From the IMG/VR virus record IMGVR_UViG_3300045988_124470, positions 1-59,707 of that record: DNA of 59,707 bases; one strand, 5' to 3'. The first letter of the stretch is position 1. Each line of letters opens with the position of its first letter. The notes beneath the pieces were generated by a model that saw only the letters and a list, made by a program, of their open reading frames with translations, was not told the DNA's origin and did no database searches. Shown one piece after another: positions 9,885 through 54,096 of the stretch. Source of the stretch: a virus. The position numbers and the translations under genes were made by a program.

Positions 9885-10234
9885 ACATCTTTCAAATAAT
9901 CGTTTACAACTTTTATAAACTCATCAAGTGACCGGACAACGACATATTTAGCGCCAATACTTTCAAACTCCTTCTGATATTCTTTCTGATGTTCAGATTG
10001 CCTGCCAGTCTTTATCTTCAATTCTATTCCACAAAATGGATAGAACTTGTTGGGGATAAGGAGAATTAAATCGGGGAATCCAGCCCGAACGCCCATTTGC
10101 TTGAATTTTGCGGCTTCAATGGCGTTGCGCTTTCCTCCGTTGGGAACACAAGCAAGCCGTTTCTTCCATTTAGGATATTTCAAGTCCCAATATTTAATTA
10201 TAGATTTTTGGAGATTATCTTCTAAATGTCTCAT
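9881..10234 (-). CDS. VRR-NUC domain nuclease
   Basis: GVRAGFPDLILLIP...GIELKIKTGRQSEHQKEYQKEFESIGAKYVVV matches the PD-(D/E)xK VRR-NUC pattern. Confidence 0.8.
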   Translation of the reverse strand: MRHLEDNLQKSIIKYWDLKYPKWKKRLACVPNGGKRNAIEAAKFKQMGVRAGFPDLILLIPNKFYPFCGIELKIKTGRQSEHQKEYQKEFESIGAKYVVVRSLDEFIKVVNDYLKDV

Positions 10235-10416
10235 ATATACTTTATTTTAAGTTCCACATCCACCGGTTTATCCCTCATCGTGGAGAAAGCATCAAGTATC
10301 CTCTCCTTAGTCAACTGGATAGGTCGGGTTATTATCTCACTTCTTATACGCTCTAACGGTATCTTCTTTCCATCATAGGTAATAAGAACCGCAGAGGTTA
10401 TTACGTAAGGCTTCAT
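10231..10416 (-). CDS. Hypothetical protein (61 aa)
   Basis: ORF track; 4-nt overlaps on both sides. Confidence 0.55.
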   Translation of the reverse strand: MKPYVITSAVLITYDGKKIPLERIRSEIITRPIQLTKERILDAFSTMRDKPVDVELKIKYI

Positions 10417-10577
10417 GTTTTGTAGGATTTCTTTGCCTGCCTTGCAATCTTCTTGTTCAGCTTGCTAAGAGCCTCATACTGTTTGTCGTCACCGCCGATA
10501 TTGTGGATGTCGTGTTTACGGTCTATCACAAGCTTATGAATGATTGCAAGTTCGGATTTGGTTATTGTAAGTTTCAT
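10413..10577 (-). CDS. Hypothetical 54-aa protein (not in the ORF track)
   Basis: Hand translation: MKLTITKSELAIIHKLVIDRKHDIHNIGGDDKQYEALSKLNKKIARQAKKSYKT; ATGA overlap with 10416. Confidence 0.5.
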   Translation of the reverse strand: MKLTITKSELAIIHKLVIDRKHDIHNIGGDDKQYEALSKLNKKIARQAKKSYKT

Positions 10578-10593
10578 GATAAGTTATATTTAG

Positions 10594-10737
10594 TGGGGAG
10601 CTCCGAATCGAACAGAGCACGTTGTTTTGCTGGATGGCAGATGATAATAAACTCATGAATAACTAATACTAATTGGCAATCAAAAAGAATAACCGTCCAA
10701 TACGTTCAACGCTACCATATTCCCCGTTTGCCCGCCA
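10594..10737 (-). ncRNA. tRNA-like element 1 (144 nt, oversized anticodon region)
   Basis: T-arm CUCUG-UUCGAUU-CGGAG. Acceptor UGGCGGG/CUCCCCA has 6 of 7 pairs (one C-C mismatch, one G-U). D-loop contains GG (GGGAAUAUGGUAG). A closing stem CGUUG/CAACG encloses ~83 nt. Confidence 0.4.
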
Positions 10738-10904
10738 TATCTTCACAGACCGGGCAGGCAGGTTAACAAATTGCTCCCGGATAGGCGGTCAAGCCACACC
10801 GGGATAGTTAACTGTTAGCTGATTTCACTTAACCCGAACCTTTCACGGGACTTCTGCGTGGGCAGAGGGCGTTTGGTTAATAATTATAACTATTAGGGAT
10901 ATAA

Positions 10905-14251: not shown

Positions 14252-14569
14252 TTAAGTAAAATAGTACATCTTGCTGTTCCCAACTCCCAACTTCTTCACT
14301 CTGATAGTTGTAATGAACGGAAAGTCTTTTTTGGAAATCTTGCTTAGGGCTTCTTTAATAGGAGTGGAGTTTGTAAAGAACTTGCATTCCGTACCTTCAT
14401 GTTTTATTTTTACTACATATCTGTCTGAACCATGCTGTGTTTTTACACCCGATTCAAAATCAAGTATTTCAATTTCACAGTTAAGAATATCGGTTATTGA
14501 AACCTGCGGAACTGGAAATATATGTCGGTCTGCATCAATTTCAATTCCTAATTCACTGAATCTTTTCAT
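14252..14569 (-). CDS. Hypothetical protein overlapping the RT stop (possible DGR accessory)
   Basis: Met at 14569 gives 105 aa (MKRFSELGIEIDADRHIFPV...); 17-nt overlap with the RT 3' end; not Avd-like (looks beta-rich). Confidence 0.55.
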   Translation of the reverse strand: MKRFSELGIEIDADRHIFPVPQVSITDILNCEIEILDFESGVKTQHGSDRYVVKIKHEGTECKFFTNSTPIKEALSKISKKDFPFITTIRVKKLGVGNSKMYYFT

Positions 14570-15539
14570 TCTTAATAATCTTTTTAATAAGGTGCTTAGA
14601 ATTACAATGCTTCGCCCAACCCAGCCATGAACAGATTGCCATTTTGTAATCATGCGGGGTTATATTCTTTTTGTTTAATGCAGATACTTTACGGCAAAAG
14701 TTTTTCTTTATGGATTTCCGCATCAATGTATGCGTATGAAAAAATACGTATCCCACGAAATCTATTCCCCTGCTATCTACCGGAAAAATCTGATAGTTGC
14801 CCTTTAATTGCAGGTGCAGTTTCTCATTAAGATATGAGTTGATTTCAAGAAGAATACTGTGTAACTCTTTCTTGCTGCTGGAAAGTATCACCATGTCATC
14901 GGCATATCTGTAATAATATGGCATTCGCTTTTCTTCCTTAATCCAATGGTCGAAATAAGAAAGATATAGATTCGCAAAGAATTGGGAAAGATAGTTACCG
15001 ATAGGAACACCAGGTGCTGAATCTATAATACCATCCAGAAGAGCAAGCACCTTTATGTCTTTTATTTTCTTACGTATGATACGTTTTAGTATGGAGTGGT
15101 CTATTGACGGATAATATTTGCAAATATCCATTTTCAGACAATATTTTGTTCCATCAGCATCTTTCAGGTCTTTCTTCAAATGTTTAACCACTCCATGAAT
15201 GCCTTTTCCTTTGATACAGGAATAAGTGTGTGAAATGAAAATCGGTGTCCATATATCTTCAAGGATGTTCATTATAGCGTGATGCACAACACGGTCACGA
15301 AATGGTAGCCTGTATATCTCACGCTCCTTTGGGTCATGTATAATGAAAGTCGTGTATTGAGAAGTGATATAGCTTCTTTCCGACAATTCTTTGTGCAAGG
15401 AAAGTATGTTGTTATCCAAATCTTTCTCAAACTGAATAACTCCATACGTTTTTCCTTTGCCCTTTTTAGCTTTAGAATAAGCAAGATAAAGATTATCTAT
15501 ATCATAGATGCGATGATATAAATTCCCAAAGCGTTTCAT
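14553..15539 (-). CDS. DGR-type reverse transcriptase
   Basis: RT motifs RDRVVHHAI, LKMDICKYYPSIDH, VPIGNYLSQFFANLYL (the DGR-typical SQ motif B), RYADDMVIL (YxDD), GIDFVGYVF. Confidence 0.9.
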   Translation of the reverse strand: MKRFGNLYHRIYDIDNLYLAYSKAKKGKGKTYGVIQFEKDLDNNILSLHKELSERSYITSQYTTFIIHDPKEREIYRLPFRDRVVHHAIMNILEDIWTPIFISHTYSCIKGKGIHGVVKHLKKDLKDADGTKYCLKMDICKYYPSIDHSILKRIIRKKIKDIKVLALLDGIIDSAPGVPIGNYLSQFFANLYLSYFDHWIKEEKRMPYYYRYADDMVILSSSKKELHSILLEINSYLNEKLHLQLKGNYQIFPVDSRGIDFVGYVFFHTHTLMRKSIKKNFCRKVSALNKKNITPHDYKMAICSWLGWAKHCNSKHLIKKIIKNEKIQ

Positions 15540-15634
15540 AGCCTTTGTTTTCTAATAAGAGTTTTCGGGTTAAACCTACCAACACCGTTTGAATTGTTGT
15601 TTTCCACCAAGAGGTGAGGTTTCTGCCCTTTGAG

Positions 15635-15721
15635 GTTTTACAACATAGGTGAGACCTGCTACCTGCATTCGCATACGCATTATCGTAATTCGAATCGTGG
15701 AAAGCGAAAGAGGAAGGAGAC
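15635..15721 (-). repeat. DGR template repeat (TR)
   Basis: The 74-nt core 15648-15721 matches both VRs except at adenines (coding strand). It has no ATG, contains three AAT codons, and lies 95 nt upstream of the RT. Confidence 0.9.
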
Positions 15722-15744
15722 AAGGGCAGACAACCTTTGTATGC

Positions 15745-16218
15745 TTATCCTATCTGGATGTCTTTCCAAATGTCAATAAATTGTTTTGCCGAATATTCCG
15801 CAAGTTCGCGTGTTTTATAATAAAGGCGAGACCAGCTACCCGCAACCGCACACGCATAACCGAAATACGAAGCGTAGAAAGCGAAAGAGGAAGGAGACAT
15901 AATGAAATAGGGATAATACTTGTTCTCATCCGAGTTATCCCAGTCTGCTTTCCAGCCTTCATTTAGAGCTTCCGTAATAACTTCCATTTTATATAACGCA
16001 ATGAAACGCTTGCGCATGTCTTTGGGCAAATCTGAAAAATCAGGGACATCTTTTCTTCCTGTTTCTTCCATTGCGTCTTCAAACGTTTTGATTCTATCCA
16101 TTACGTTTTGATTGGCAAATATTTCTTTGCCGTATAGATTTTCGAGCATCTGCTTTCCTTTATTGTCCGCTTCTCTCCAAGCCTTTAAAGCGTTCTTTTT
16201 ATATACATTTAAAGTCAT
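15745..16218 (-). CDS. DGR variable (target) protein 1, 157 aa
   Basis: Contains VR1 at about aa 107-132 (SPSSFAFYASYFGYACAVAGSWSRL); paralog of 16237..16713. Confidence 0.85.
   Translation of the reverse strand: MTLNVYKKNALKAWREADNKGKQMLENLYGKEIFANQNVMDRIKTFEDAMEETGRKDVPDFSDLPKDMRKRFIALYKMEVITEALNEGWKADWDNSDENKYYPYFIMSPSSFAFYASYFGYACAVAGSWSRLYYKTRELAEYSAKQFIDIWKDIQIG
15812..15898 (-). repeat. DGR variable repeat 1 (VR1)
   Basis: Core 15825-15898 vs TR: 12 mismatches, 11 at TR adenines and one C->T. Confidence 0.9.
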
Positions 16219-16236
16219 AATTGTAAGTTTATAGGG

Positions 16237-16713
16237 TTATAGAATAAATTGTTTCCACAAATCAATGAATTGCTTCCCGCAATAATTGGAAAGCTTTTCG
16301 CTTTTCAAACAAAGGCGAGACCCGCTACCCGCATACGCAGACGCAAAATCGTAATACGAACCGTGGAAAGCGAAAGAGGAAGGAGACCCATTAGGCTTGA
16401 ACCACGGATACCAGCGTTTCACGTTAGCATCGCATACATTAAGTTTCTGACCTTCATTTAGAGCTTCCGTAACGATAGCCAGCTTTTGGTAAGCAATATC
16501 GTGTTCCGTCAAGCCTAACTCCAATAGCTTTTTCTCATCGAGTGGTTCCCTTCCCAACTCGTGACAAGCATCAAGGTAGGTTTTCACTCTTTCTGTAACG
16601 TCTTGTGAAAAGAAATCCTTTCCAAAGGATTCTTCCAATACTGTTTTTAGTTCTTTTGAACCGCTCCGATATAGTTCACGGGCTTTTTGTTCACTTAATT
16701 GTAATGTTTTCAT
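16237..16713 (-). CDS. DGR variable (target) protein 2, 158 aa
   Basis: Contains VR2 at about aa 109-134 (SPSSFAFHGSYYDFASAYAGSGSRL); shares the TEALNEG motif and C-terminus (KQFIDLWK) with target 1. Confidence 0.85.
   Translation of the reverse strand: MKTLQLSEQKARELYRSGSKELKTVLEESFGKDFFSQDVTERVKTYLDACHELGREPLDEKKLLELGLTEHDIAYQKLAIVTEALNEGQKLNVCDANVKRWYPWFKPNGSPSSFAFHGSYYDFASAYAGSGSRLCLKSEKLSNYCGKQFIDLWKQFIL
16301..16387 (-). repeat. DGR variable repeat 2 (VR2)
   Basis: Core 16314-16387 vs TR: 9 mismatches, all at TR adenines. Confidence 0.9.
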
Positions 16714-16744
16714 ATAATTGTTATTAATGGGTTTTCAAATATGT

Positions 16745-16849
16745 TGCGACACCCGGATTCGAACCGGGACGAGTTGTCAAGCTCCATACATCTAAGGTTT
16801 GACCTTCCTATCATAGAGTGTATTACGTCTACCATTCCGCCATGTCGCA
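16745..16849 (-). ncRNA. tRNA-like element 2 (105 nt; class II/Leu-like frame with a 28-nt 'anticodon loop')
   Basis: Perfect 7-bp acceptor UGCGACA/UGUCGCA, D-arm GCG-GAAUGGUAGA-CGU, 17-nt variable arm, T-arm CCCGG-UUCGAAU-CCGGG. The anticodon stem AUACA/UGUAU encloses 28 nt. Confidence 0.55.
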
Positions 16850-17920: not shown

Positions 17921-18327
17921 ATCATTTAATATTAAGTATAAGTGCTCCCTTCAACGCAACAATACGTGTTTGGCTTTTCAGCGTGCCCGAATTTTACGGG
18001 AAGGGAGTATATATATAGTATCAGCGATAATTACGCCCAAACATCATACTTTAACGGTCAACGGACGATTTTCCGTGCTGATACATGGACTACTATTGTA
18101 GTATGTTCATTAACTTAATCACGCTGCTGCCTTATGCTCGTATTCACCTCTCAATGAACAGTCTTCGCAATCGGTTGCTTACACGCTATACATCGCCTCG
18201 GCTATGTGTATAATAGATATACTGCTTATCAGCGCAGGCTAATTTTACGTGCCCTGAACACGACTTCATTTTTGAGGGTTAAGTCTCCCATCCCGAATGT
18301 TTGGCTCATCGGTTTCGCCTGTAATGC

Positions 18328-18442
18328 TCCCTCTGCACGATTCGAACGTGCGACCTTCACCACCGGAATACACAGACCGGAAATACTAAACTTTCACGAA
18401 CAATAACCGAGGCGACACTCTGCCTGGCTGAGATAAGAGGGA
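18328..18442 (-). ncRNA. tRNA-like element 3 (115 nt, oversized anticodon region)
   Basis: Perfect 7-bp acceptor UCCCUCU/AGAGGGA, D-arm CUC-AGCCAGGCA-GAG, T-arm GCACG-UUCGAAU-CGUGC, 5-nt variable loop. The stem UCGCC/GGUGA encloses 49 nt. Confidence 0.45.
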
Positions 18443-25872: not shown

Positions 25873-27081
25873 ATGGCAACGGTTAAATTCTACCTTGATA
25901 AAAGAAGGCAAAAAAAAGATGGCACTTATCCAATAAAGTTGAATGTATTTCACAACAAACAAATAATGATAGCTACGCAGCTAAGTGCTTCAGAGAAAGA
26001 ATGGGCTGGTAACGAATATTCTACAAAGGCACAAAACTATAAACCAAGAAACGTAGTTGCCCGTGGAATAATAAACAAGGCGGAAACAGTAATATTGACG
26101 TTGGAACAACAAGGGAAGCTAAAGTCAACAACGGACACATCGTTAAAGAAGATGATAGAAGATGCTATATGCAATAAGATTGAAAGCCACAAAACGTTTC
26201 TCTATTACCTTGATGAATTTATGTCCAAGAAAACCAACCAGGGTACTAAAACCATATACACAACCACAAGAAACAAGATTGAAGAATACGATAGCCATTG
26301 TACATTTGAAAGCATGGATAAGTCATGGCTGGAACACTTTGAAGCATGGATGGCAAAAACCATGAAGGTTAACGCCTATGCTATTCATCTACGGAATATA
26401 CGCACTGTATTCAACTATGCCATTGATGAGGAATACACGACATTGTATCCGTTCAGAAGATTTTCAATTAAAAAAGAGGAGACAAGAAAACGTTCTCTGA
26501 CTGTAGAGCAGTTAGCTACATTACGAGATTACCCATGTGAGGAATATCAGATAAGATATAGAGATATATTCATGCTCATGTTTTATCTTATAGGGGTAAA
26601 TGCAGCCGATTTGTTTAACGCAAAACATTCCGCATTGGTAAATGGTCGTTTTGAATATAAGAGGGCTAAGACGGGGAAATTATACAGCATAAAAGTGGAA
26701 CCGGAAGCGCAGGCTATAATTGAGAAATACAAAGGGAAGGATTATCTTCTTAATATAATGGACGAATACGGAAATTACAAGGATTTCCTACATCGTATGG
26801 GAATAGGATTAAAACAGATTGGAGAGACAGAGAGGAAAGGATTGGGCGGAAAAAAGAGTAGAAATCCTCTATTCCCTGATTTGTCCTCGTACTGGGCAAG
26901 ACACACATGGGCTACGGTAGCGGCAGAACTCGATATTCCCAAAGAGGTAATCGCCCATGCACTCGGGCATAGCTGGGCGAACAGTACAACGACCGACATC
27001 TATATCCGATTTGATACTAAAAAAGTAGATGAAGCCAATCGTAAGGTTATTGATTATGTGAATATTATAAAAAAGCAATAA
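25873..27081 (+). CDS. int: Tyrosine recombinase / phage integrase
   Basis: 402 aa; C-terminal catalytic region YWARHTWATVAAELDIP..VIAHALGHS...TDIY (R..H..R/H..Y); adjacent to the tRNA-derived attP. Confidence 0.9.
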   Translation: MATVKFYLDKRRQKKDGTYPIKLNVFHNKQIMIATQLSASEKEWAGNEYSTKAQNYKPRNVVARGIINKAETVILTLEQQGKLKSTTDTSLKKMIEDAICNKIESHKTFLYYLDEFMSKKTNQGTKTIYTTTRNKIEEYDSHCTFESMDKSWLEHFEAWMAKTMKVNAYAIHLRNIRTVFNYAIDEEYTTLYPFRRFSIKKEETRKRSLTVEQLATLRDYPCEEYQIRYRDIFMLMFYLIGVNAADLFNAKHSALVNGRFEYKRAKTGKLYSIKVEPEAQAIIEKYKGKDYLLNIMDEYGNYKDFLHRMGIGLKQIGETERKGLGGKKSRNPLFPDLSSYWARHTWATVAAELDIPKEVIAHALGHSWANSTTTDIYIRFDTKKVDEANRKVIDYVNIIKKQ

Positions 27082-52710: not shown

Positions 52711-54096
52711 ATGGACCCAATCACTATCCCCAACATCAGCATCCCGACAATCAGTATTCCTACTATTGGGATACCGTCTGTCGGTTTTCCGTCCGCTTCG
52801 GGTGGTGGCGGTCTTTCATGGCCTGCTGGTATGAAAGAGCACATCAAGGCTATCTATGACCCTGCTTCGCAGGGTATGACTAACTATGATGTGATAGAGG
52901 CCTATGTGGAGAACTTTACAACGTGGAATTATCTTAGTAGTAGAGGAAGCGCAACTGTTACTACAAATAAAATTATCATCACAAAATCATTCAGTAATAC
53001 ACAAAATATTATTGAAGATAATAAATCACCGTATGATGATATTAAAATCTATGTTACAGGAATTAGTGAAGATAATCCTTTAACGATTAATCAATATGTA
53101 GATAATAAATGGGTTAGATTACATACTTATACAACTGATGGCATTTATATTGTAAAAAATAGAAACTTGTATGTTGGATTTGGAACTTATATAACTGATG
53201 ATTGTAACATCACTATAACCCAACTCCCTACATCAATCCTAAAAGACCTTAGCGGCAACGGCAACCACGCCTATTTGTATGGTGGTAAGGGTAAGCTGAA
53301 TAGTGGTATGGGGCTTTATAAGGTTGATTTTACATCATGGAGAAAAAGTTCAGTTCAAACAGAGGTAAAACCTGATGTTGTTAAAGTTACTCCTAATACA
53401 TCTGATTATCTATTTATTCAATATGCCAATTCAGTCGAAATCCCTTCATATAAGATAAAAGTAATAGGATTAGGAGATAATGTTCTTAAGTATCAATATG
53501 CAACTGAAAATGGTAGAAAGGAGATTAATATTGTAGAGGGTGAAAATGAATTACCTACATCTATTAAGGTTAGTAATGATTATCAAATTGGTTATAGATT
53601 AACTCCAGGCACAAGTGTTTTTACCATTACCCAAATCCCCGACTACCCCGACCAGCTCTGCTACGACGGTGGTATGTGTGCGGTCGCTTATGAATTCCCT
53701 ATATTAACGGATTATACTATTATTGCTGATAGAACTTGGTTTGATATTCGTGACATATCTTGTTTTATAGGAAAAAGAAACGGAAGCGGAGATAATTTAG
53801 GGGCATTTGAGTTTGAATTTAGAGCCAATAAGACTTTTAGTTTTGGTGGAGATAATAATATAATATTTGCAGATAATAACATTGTATATCAAACAAAGAA
53901 CTCATATAATGGTGCCGAAATTAAATCGGGTTCATTAGATGATACTGATGTTCTGATTATTGGAGCTGCTCAAAGAAATGTTAATGATAAAGCACAAGAC
54001 CCATATATCGGCTGCCATGGCAAAATCATCATCGCCGACCGTAGCTTTACCGAAGATGAAATTACTTGGTTAAAGGATAATTGGGAAAAGATATGA
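52711..54096 (+). CDS. Hypothetical protein (461 aa) with N-terminal IPxIS repeats
   Basis: N-terminus ITIPNISIPTISIPTIGIPSVGFPS followed by a GGGG linker. Confidence 0.65.
   Translation: MDPITIPNISIPTISIPTIGIPSVGFPSASGGGGLSWPAGMKEHIKAIYDPASQGMTNYDVIEAYVENFTTWNYLSSRGSATVTTNKIIITKSFSNTQNIIEDNKSPYDDIKIYVTGISEDNPLTINQYVDNKWVRLHTYTTDGIYIVKNRNLYVGFGTYITDDCNITITQLPTSILKDLSGNGNHAYLYGGKGKLNSGMGLYKVDFTSWRKSSVQTEVKPDVVKVTPNTSDYLFIQYANSVEIPSYKIKVIGLGDNVLKYQYATENGRKEINIVEGENELPTSIKVSNDYQIGYRLTPGTSVFTITQIPDYPDQLCYDGGMCAVAYEFPILTDYTIIADRTWFDIRDISCFIGKRNGSGDNLGAFEFEFRANKTFSFGGDNNIIFADNNIVYQTKNSYNGAEIKSGSLDDTDVLIIGAAQRNVNDKAQDPYIGCHGKIIIADRSFTEDEITWLKDNWEKI

Follow-up and report, generated by a model that had tools for sequence, protein, structure and literature searches.

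A very probably functional diversity-generating retroelement with two tandem targets and a reverse transcriptase-coupled small open reading frame in a phage of gut Bacteroidota

The virus record IMGVR_UViG_3300045988_124470 of IMG/VR (positions 1 to 59,707; this whole stretch of 59,707 nucleotides is called the window here) carries a diversity-generating retroelement (DGR) on its minus strand between 14252 and 16713. The cassette is ~2.5 kb in size and comprises, in this order, target gene 2, target gene 1, one template repeat (TR), a spacer, the gene of a reverse transcriptase (RT) and a small open reading frame (ORF) coupled to it, termed dORF. Each target gene contains one variable repeat (VR). 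We are confident that the cassette is a functional DGR of a lineage of Bacteroidota phages, and it is a DGR by every testable criterion but Avd. DGRs are very common in phages of gut Bacteroidota. To our knowledge, prokaryotes and their viruses have no other natural system that hypermutates proteins in a targeted manner, and we know of their mechanism almost entirely from the Avd-dependent element of BPP-1. The elements of the cassette are as follows.

16237-16713 (-): target gene 2, ORF of 158 amino acids (aa), TR-distal; VR2 is internal and followed by ~28 codons
16301-16387 (-): VR2, 87 nt; hypervariable part 16334-16365, 3' part 16301-16333 resembling an initiation of mutagenic homing (IMH) site, VR-only hairpin 16315-16332
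15745-16218 (-): target gene 1, ORF of 157 aa, TR-proximal; paralogue of target 2 (~40% identity)
15812-15898 (-): VR1, 87 nt; hypervariable part 15845-15876, IMH-like 3' part 15812-15844, VR-only hairpin 15826-15843
15635-15721 (-): TR, 87 nt; mutagenic adenines at 15668-15699, IMH*-like 3' part 15635-15667, no expressed gene of its own
15545-15621 (-): TR-RT spacer RNA, Rfam RF03020 (RT-17); the total TR-RT spacer is 95 nt
14553-15539 (-): DGR reverse transcriptase, 328 aa; YADD and IGxxxSQ motifs, matches in Pfam, PHROG and PDB
14252-14569 (-): dORF, RT-coupled small ORF of 105 aa with an isoelectric point (pI) of 8.6; the two reading frames overlap by 17 nt, from the dORF ATG to the RT stop

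An earlier note on this DNA, made from the sequence alone, had proposed a complete DGR. ORF calls and alignment of the repeats returned the same minus-strand order and the same coordinates for targets, TR and RT. All parts that it had named are present, while the 105-aa ORF at 14252-14569 and the RT-17 spacer RNA were missing from its list. 'Complete' holds for RT, TR and VRs but, because the cassette has no Avd gene, is limited to the sense in which Avd-less lineages are complete. Two adjacent targets served by one TR had been described as uncommon, which was not borne out: two-target cassettes make up ~15% of DGRs (Wu et al. 2018, PMC5758913), and relatives of the present cassette carry two or three targets. 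Three tandem paralogous targets were seen upstream of the RT in L051, L052 and L058, each VR matching the TR with mismatches at adenine sites. The order target(s)-TR-RT-dORF is kept to ~60% RT identity and across different flanking contexts.

The 74-nt core common to the three repeats lies at 15648-15721 (TR), 15825-15898 (VR1) and 16314-16387 (VR2), and an independent repeat search recovered the same three-copy family. In an ungapped alignment of the core, VR1 differs from the TR at 12 positions, 11 of which are TR adenines, and VR2 at 9, all of them (9/9) TR adenines. The hand count of the note (21 mismatches, 20 at TR adenines, one C->T in VR1) was reproduced in this way, as was the substitution of 12 of the 15 TR adenines in at least one VR. 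A lack of enrichment at TR adenines had been set beforehand as one of the outcomes that would refute the DGR interpretation; the mismatches are enriched there with Fisher exact p = 3.7e-9 (VR1) and 4.5e-8 (VR2). The 13 nt 3' of the core are alignable and carry non-adenine differences, as had been noticed. A DGR-type RT and a single TR are accompanied by two VRs that differ from the TR specifically at adenines and by non-adenine differences at the 3' boundary, and the DGR interpretation stands.

The placement of the adenines was analysed with respect to the reading frame of the targets. The VRs lie at codons ~108-136 of the 157/158-aa proteins, and 14/15 core adenines are at codon position 1 or 2. 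AAY, GAT and TAY codons of the TR cannot mutate to stop codons. The 5' 22 nt of the repeat (15700-15721) are free of adenine and invariant. The sole non-adenine difference in the core is the C>T at 15699 in VR1. Because 21/23 related TRs carry A at this position, where the TR of the window has C, the exception is most simply explained by earlier mutagenesis at this site while the TR still had its ancestral A, which in the window TR has since changed to C. Since one A would have become C, the window TR has 11 mutagenic adenines and the ancestral TR had 12.

For comparison with related phages, IMG/VR was scanned with the RT, which gave at least 594 related loci. Of these, 80 were kept, 23 of them with an RT 97-100% identical to that of the window. 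The close-relative set consisted of the 22 loci having all three repeats plus the window (23 genomes, RT >=97% identical). These contain 23 unique VR1 alleles and 23 unique VR2 alleles, whereas the TR is conserved, with only 8 variants. Compared with the TR of the same genome, 376/542 TR adenine sites were mismatched (69%) versus 10/1,942 non-adenine sites (0.5%). At the hypervariable adenine sites all four bases occur at 10/12 and three bases at the other 2. Nucleotide diversity over 1.4 kb is near zero except for peaks at the two VRs. Some genomes carry a rare non-adenine variant in the TR and again in each of their two VRs: L001 has T at repeat position 9, and L008 and L012 have T at position 12. 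Such sharing, as expected from TR-to-VR copying, demonstrates the transfer and shows that both targets are served. In a second group (RT ~82% identical), 64% of TR adenine sites and 1.4% of non-adenine sites were mismatched, and in cassettes with 60-70% RT identity the mismatches were again almost all at TR adenines. As judged from its sequences, the lineage is demonstrably active on both targets.

Apart from this, the TR itself varies at 7 sites among near-identical phages (L001-L021, L055). Five of the sites are adenines (repeat positions 23, 27, 41, 42 and 72). Several variant TR bases are identical to the base that a VR of that genome carries, which suggests that gene conversion from VR to TR, or self-homing, happens now and then and slowly erodes the TR adenines. 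In another close relative, L036 (~1767-2221), target 1 and the two VRs are absent, and the 5' part of target 2 runs into a single TR-like repeat; this arrangement may stem from a recombinational deletion between VR2 and TR or from repeats collapsed during assembly.

The 3' boundary of the repeats was compared in the same 23 phages. At 15664, 15657, 15650 and, outside the core, 15646, the TR has A and the VRs have G, G (rarely T), G and T, respectively, in essentially all 46 alleles. The first three were counted above among the adenine mismatches. Being fixed or nearly fixed, all four are taken to mark an IMH/IMH*-like boundary rather than fresh mutagenesis. Two of the four differences are synonymous (GCA/GCG, CTA/CTT), so selection at the protein level does not explain them. 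The boundary bases give the VRs a GCGGG-N8-CTCGC hairpin of 5 bp followed by a T-run, which a terminator scan detected in both VRs but not in the TR. The A-versus-G pattern is also present at the boundary of distant cassettes. A GC-rich cruciform as in BPP-1 was not found downstream of the VRs, where DNA folds of the 3' flanks were no better than shuffles (z +0.28 and -1.16). We infer that the 3' differences between VR and TR are the IMH/IMH* distinction of this lineage and that the hairpin may contribute to it.

Within the TR-RT spacer, positions 15545-15621 matched the Rfam model RF03020 (RT-17) with 41.5 bits (gathering score 40.4), and matches of 41.5-50.7 bits were obtained at the equivalent position in 8 relatives. 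The structure consists of a hairpin P1 (CACC-UCUU-GGUG), an A-rich linker and a stem P2 around a conserved (G/A)GUA...GAA, with a variable inner hairpin. Among 26 diverse spacers, P1 shows compensatory changes in 4/5 pairs, and the P2 outer stem stays paired although both of its strands have changed. For P2 a motif-anchored script was used, as the MAFFT alignment was one column out of register between subfamilies. The evidence for the structure is this covariation and not the folding energy, since the global fold of TR plus spacer RNA was unexceptional (z +0.56). Of the RT motifs described by Weinberg et al. 2017, only RT-10 had been tied to a DGR, and the others were speculated about. In the window, RT-17 lies directly 3' of a TR. 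On this sequence comparison, RT-17 is assignable to DGR spacers, which goes beyond the known picture.

The RT was identified by Pfam RVT_1 (E 1.5e-17) and PHROG 1423 (E 2.9e-132). YADD and the DGR-type motif B, which the note had read in this ORF, were located in the 328-aa protein as YYYRYADDMVIL and GVPIGNYLSQFFANLYL. GVPIGNYLSQ aligns with GIPIGSLTSQ of BPP-1 Brt, and the two motifs correspond to the I/LGxxxSQ and YxDD criteria. The best PDB match was 8ub7_A (E 1.4e-55, residues 2-317), a protein of the same length (328 aa) and 100% identical to BPP-1 brt, as established by sequence. The next-best PDB matches were retron-type and group II RTs at ~1e-16. By match scores, not by phylogeny, the RT is assigned to the DGR type with Brt as its closest relative of solved structure. 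The closest RTs among annotated phage records were those of crAss-like phages (49-57% identity). A near-identical annotated phage was not found: megablast of 13-18 kb against INPHARED gave only short matches in a tRNA-like region.

From these data the following mechanism is proposed. The TR and the downstream RT-17 spacer would be transcribed, and the RT, probably with the 105-aa dORF protein, would make cDNA from the TR RNA, misincorporating opposite template adenines. The cDNA would then replace the homologous segment in either of the two tandem paralogous targets. With the ancestral TR, 12 adenines in 8 codons (AAC, GAT, AAT, TAC, GAT, AAT, TAT, AAT) would be randomised, yielding by calculation ~1.7e7 DNA and ~1.3e7 protein variants per target with no stop codon possible. 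Directionality would be set at the 3' end by VR G/G/G/T versus TR A at the four boundary sites and by the VR-only short GC-rich hairpin and T-run.

The targets had no Pfam, NCBIfam or PDB sequence match, and no Pfam match was obtained with 30 diverse members of their family. Target 2 belongs to PHROG 11581, for which no function is assigned. The family is large (>7,400 homologue clusters; 4,559 clusters at 50% identity), and its members are mostly stand-alone proteins of 150-165 aa. Proteins of ~250-305 aa among the 50%-identity representatives match the family profile as two tandem copies. The small-target family was found in 41/75 of the RT loci from species-representative genomes described below, and from its distribution it is a recurrent DGR target. 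An AlphaFold2 (AF2) model of the target is largely helical with pLDDT 81. Foldseek searches with this model gave no PDB match and no C-type lectin match, and in BFVD only uncharacterised viral or phage proteins were found. A similarity of only 26 columns was seen to the tail-protein VR of Bacteroides phage Versailles, at its C-terminal end G[FS]RLC. With this ending, the segment common to both is like classical DGR VRs. A signal peptide or hydrophobic segment was not evident at the N-terminus of the targets. The targets would be ligand-binding proteins with a binding surface encoded by the VR.

Concerning the site of action, an early, intracellular role of the targets is favoured over a role in the virion because their genes sit in the early module. 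Alternatively, they could be tail-associated receptor-binding proteins of the virion that are encoded outside the tail module and serve host-range switching as in BPP-1. This is unlikely, though it deserves serious consideration. The Versailles TR matches both a tail-protein VR and the VR of a small-target homologue that is itself annotated 'tail protein', and the G[FS]RLC resemblance points in the same direction; the annotation, however, was transferred automatically from HHpred/PHROG. The target genes of the window, of Versailles and of two further contexts lie amid recombination, replication and other DNA-metabolism genes on the strand opposite the structural module. Moreover, among the 150 best family representatives none has the size of a tail fibre, and the longer ones mostly match as two tandem copies.

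In the BPP-1 model system Avd, a basic four-helix bundle of ~128 aa, is essential. In the present cassette no ORF separates target and TR, and Pfam, NCBIfam and PDB sequence searches gave no Avd match for the small ORFs next to the RT, the rest of the window not having been exhaustively scanned for Avd. Since Avd is absent from ~26% of catalogued DGRs, it is not strictly defining for a DGR. Wu et al. 2018 (PMC5758913) stated that many DGRs lack Avd and must work differently, and no substitute was named for this lineage. Benler et al. 2018 (PMC6199706) mentioned 'a small ORF' of Avd-like pI and mass near the RT of Hankyphage.

The 105-aa dORF belongs to PHROG 19665 (function unassigned) and had no sequence-level PDB match. 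It directly follows the RT in essentially all viral loci, including those with other targets. Conservation of this linkage was analysed in 80 species-representative genomes carrying the RT lineage (54-72% identity), nearly all labelled Bacteroidota, of which 77 loci had enough flanking sequence. A dORF homologue was found in 76/77 loci, usually overlapping the RT end and irrespective of the target family; no locus had the small-target family without dORF. The RT-adjacent position is kept beside DNA methylases in a Salinivirgaceae metagenome-assembled genome and at a locus with a Mu Gam-like gene in a Dysgonomonas genome. In Hankyphage, the 434-aa RT (L086 2023-3327; BK010646.1 38743-40047) consists of the RT domain and an in-frame C-terminal dORF domain (39% identity, E 2e-19).

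The AF2 model of dORF (pLDDT 88) is beta-rich, not a helical bundle as in Avd, with strands at 32-44, 47-57 and 60-66, a helix at 69-77 and strands at 85-93 and 100-104. Many of the top-ranked Foldseek matches in the PDB were oligonucleotide/oligosaccharide-binding (OB) folds (Teb1 OB-A, SSB, RPA, HIN and the anticodon-binding domain of aminoacyl-tRNA synthetases), all non-significant (E >=0.13, TM-score 0.3-0.4). The predicted protein is a candidate for an OB-like beta1-3/alpha/beta4-5 topology, and a candidate accessory factor that may stand in for Avd. Within the searchable literature, no publication was found that links DGRs to an OB-fold cofactor. Identity with CH1 of Wu et al. was rejected because size and pI differ (CH1 160-169 aa, pI 4.7; dORF 105 aa, pI 8.6).

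It may be argued that dORF is a mere passenger phage gene and that no accessory protein is needed, as in 'Architecture A' of Wu et al. 2018. Indeed, 29% of catalogued DGRs have no recognised accessory gene, and dORF has no recognisable domain. A passenger would, however, hardly be expected to accompany the RT in 76/77 loci across Bacteroidota whatever the target family or flanking genes, with a start that usually overlaps the RT stop and, in Hankyphage, as an in-frame C-terminal domain of the RT. This explanation is improbable, and a contribution of dORF to the DGR is preferred.

Several points weigh against the cassette being a functional DGR as described here. The evidence for activity comes from the lineage, as represented by assembled relatives, and not from this particular genome, and the VR sequences of metagenome assemblies may be a population consensus. 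No Avd homologue was found in the cassette while Avd is essential in the BPP-1 model, and for the OB fold of dORF the support consists of model topology and Foldseek matches without significance. The VR-adjacent hairpin is short and thermodynamically unexceptional. Regarding the nature of the variable domain, pLDDT of the VR segment is below 50, and the model had no C-type-lectin match.

The first of these points would fit a cassette that is a relic here, its TR/VR pattern reflecting past activity of the lineage without homing in this genome. The window TR has lost an adenine (A>C at 15699) and the VR1 base at this site is unmatched, and the related contig L036 has one TR-like repeat fused to target 2. 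Against this, RT, dORF, spacer RNA, TR and both VR boundary regions are intact in the window, RT and dORF are 97-100% identical to those of relatives whose VRs all differ, and L036 may be an assembly collapse of repeats. A relic is very improbable, and we maintain that the DGR is very probably functional. That this is no DGR but the RT of a retron, group II intron or defence system next to ordinary paralogous repeats diverging by point mutation or gene conversion is effectively refuted, because the NCBIfam matches of the RT to group II, Drt3a and retron models are far below the cut-offs, the best solved relative is BPP-1 Brt, and restriction to adenines cannot come from ordinary divergence.

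The genome is that of a phage of gut Bacteroidota. On the plus strand, from ~25.8 kb, it encodes an integrase, large terminase, portal, major head protein, tape measure and tail proteins. The DGR lies in a minus-strand early module together with AAA_24, NinB, a DnaC-like loader and an O-like initiator. Because the integrase is of the tyrosine type (25873-27081 (+), PHROG 1, E 3e-28), the phage is probably temperate; it is siphovirus-like. The host was not pinned down, no RT more than 72% identical having been found in species-representative genomes. In these, the RT lineage occurs in Bacteroidales, Flavobacteriales, Sphingobacteriales and Chitinophagales.

Two tRNA-like elements were detected upstream of the cassette. 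The first (16743-16849 (-), 30 nt upstream of target 2) scored 41.7 bits with the Rfam tRNA model and has a conserved anticodon-loop insertion of ~21 nt and a long variable arm. It was missed by ARAGORN with default settings; with introns allowed, an anticodon CTA (amber suppressor) was assigned upon removal of 21 nt. In relatives, ARAGORN gave the anticodons tag and atg with 19-nt inserts, and the anticodon is ambiguous. The gene is conserved in close relatives, where substitutions in the anticodon stem keep pairing (A-U to G-U, G-C). Amber recoding was considered as a reason for a CUA tRNA-like gene and rejected: reading TAG as sense lengthened ORFs less than reading TGA or TAA as sense, which gives no indication that TAG is recoded in the window. 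The second element (18326-18442 (-)) was called by ARAGORN only, as 'tRNA-Arg(ccg)' with a 42-nt anticodon-loop insertion, and a similar call (34-nt) was obtained in most close relatives. Because the Rfam tRNA model had no match at 18326-18442, the call may be a false positive.

If the targets act inside the cell, phages would employ DGR diversification for more than host-range switching. Should they bind host factors or defence proteins, they would form a diversified counter-defence or take-over repertoire on the side of the phage. The 105-aa protein, encoded in 76/77 loci and, in the globally common Hankyphage, forming one chain with the RT, is a concrete candidate for an Avd substitute. With this candidate and a defined RT-17 spacer RNA, Avd-independent retrohoming becomes directly testable. 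Compact two-target cassettes (~2.5 kb) may also serve for engineered in vivo diversification in Bacteroides. The picture in which all parts combine, namely Avd-less retrohoming of this widespread Bacteroidota-phage lineage by means of an OB-fold-like protein coupled or fused to the RT, diversifying tandem small, early-expressed intracellular proteins that possibly bind host factors or defence proteins, is tentative and, taken as a whole, unlikely to hold in every part.

The cassette was finally compared with known systems. With BPP-1 (mtd-avd-TR-brt) it shares full-length RT homology (328 aa in both), the position of the TR ahead of the RT, a structured RNA in the spacer between them, TR-to-VR differences specific to adenines, and a 3' boundary marked by fixed VR/TR differences. 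BPP-1 has avd between target and TR, whereas the window has a beta-rich 105-aa ORF overlapping the RT stop instead. The single target of BPP-1 is a tail fibre, in contrast to the two early-region targets of 157-158 aa. Unlike in BPP-1, the VRs are internal (~28 codons follow), only 11-12 adenines are mutable and no long GC-rich cruciform lies downstream of the VR. The BPP-1 spacer falls into RT-10 (Weinberg et al.), that of the window into RT-17.

Hankyphage (Bacteroides phage p00, BK010646; Benler et al. 2018, PMC6199706) is likewise temperate, its record has no annotated Avd homologue, and it carries the dORF-domain homologue described above; its RT is 32% identical. It differs in that the dORF domain forms the in-frame C-terminus of the 434-aa RT and in having a single target of >2,000 aa with a C-type lectin VR domain. 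Hankyphage is a Mu-like transposable phage, whereas the window is an integrase-bearing siphovirus-like genome. The DGRs of crAss-like phages (cr52_1, crAssphage LMMB; PMC7290462) also stem from the human gut and Bacteroidota hosts, with RTs 49-57% identical, but no dORF homologue was found by tblastn in those genomes, and the LMMB target is a tail-collar fibre protein (PMC7290462).

The cultured Bacteroides phage Versailles (ON453897) has, in its recombination module, a homologue of the small targets that directly follows NinB (hhalign probability 99.6%). Here, however, RT and TR lie beside a tail-protein target ~44 kb away, with the small protein as a remote second target, and the RT is only 45% identical to that of the window; no dORF match was found in this phage. 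The Versailles TR (ON453897.1) matches the VR of the adjacent tail protein and, at 87% identity, a segment of WAK79127.1, with mismatches mostly at TR adenines (L084 5001-5582 and L085 2900-3350, corresponding to 10181-10762 and ~53600-54050 of the record). WAK79127.1 is a 193-aa protein encoded after NinB, labelled 'tail protein' and homologous to the window targets. Versailles appears to have a DGR with a second, remote target; the paper naming this phage makes no mention of a DGR.

The Avd-less lineages of Wu et al. 2018 (PMC5758913; Lineage 3, Architecture A; CH1) share with the window the lack of Avd, the occurrence in Bacteroides and relatives and the order target(s)-TR-RT. Those with CH1 differ in their accessory gene, CH1 being a larger, acidic protein (160-169 aa) and dORF one of 105 aa with pI 8.6. 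Avd-less lineages, two-target cassettes and uncharacterised VR domains are already documented. What goes beyond the known picture is the near-universal small protein linked to the RT (fused to it in Hankyphage), the presence of RT-17 in DGR spacers and the small early-region targets.

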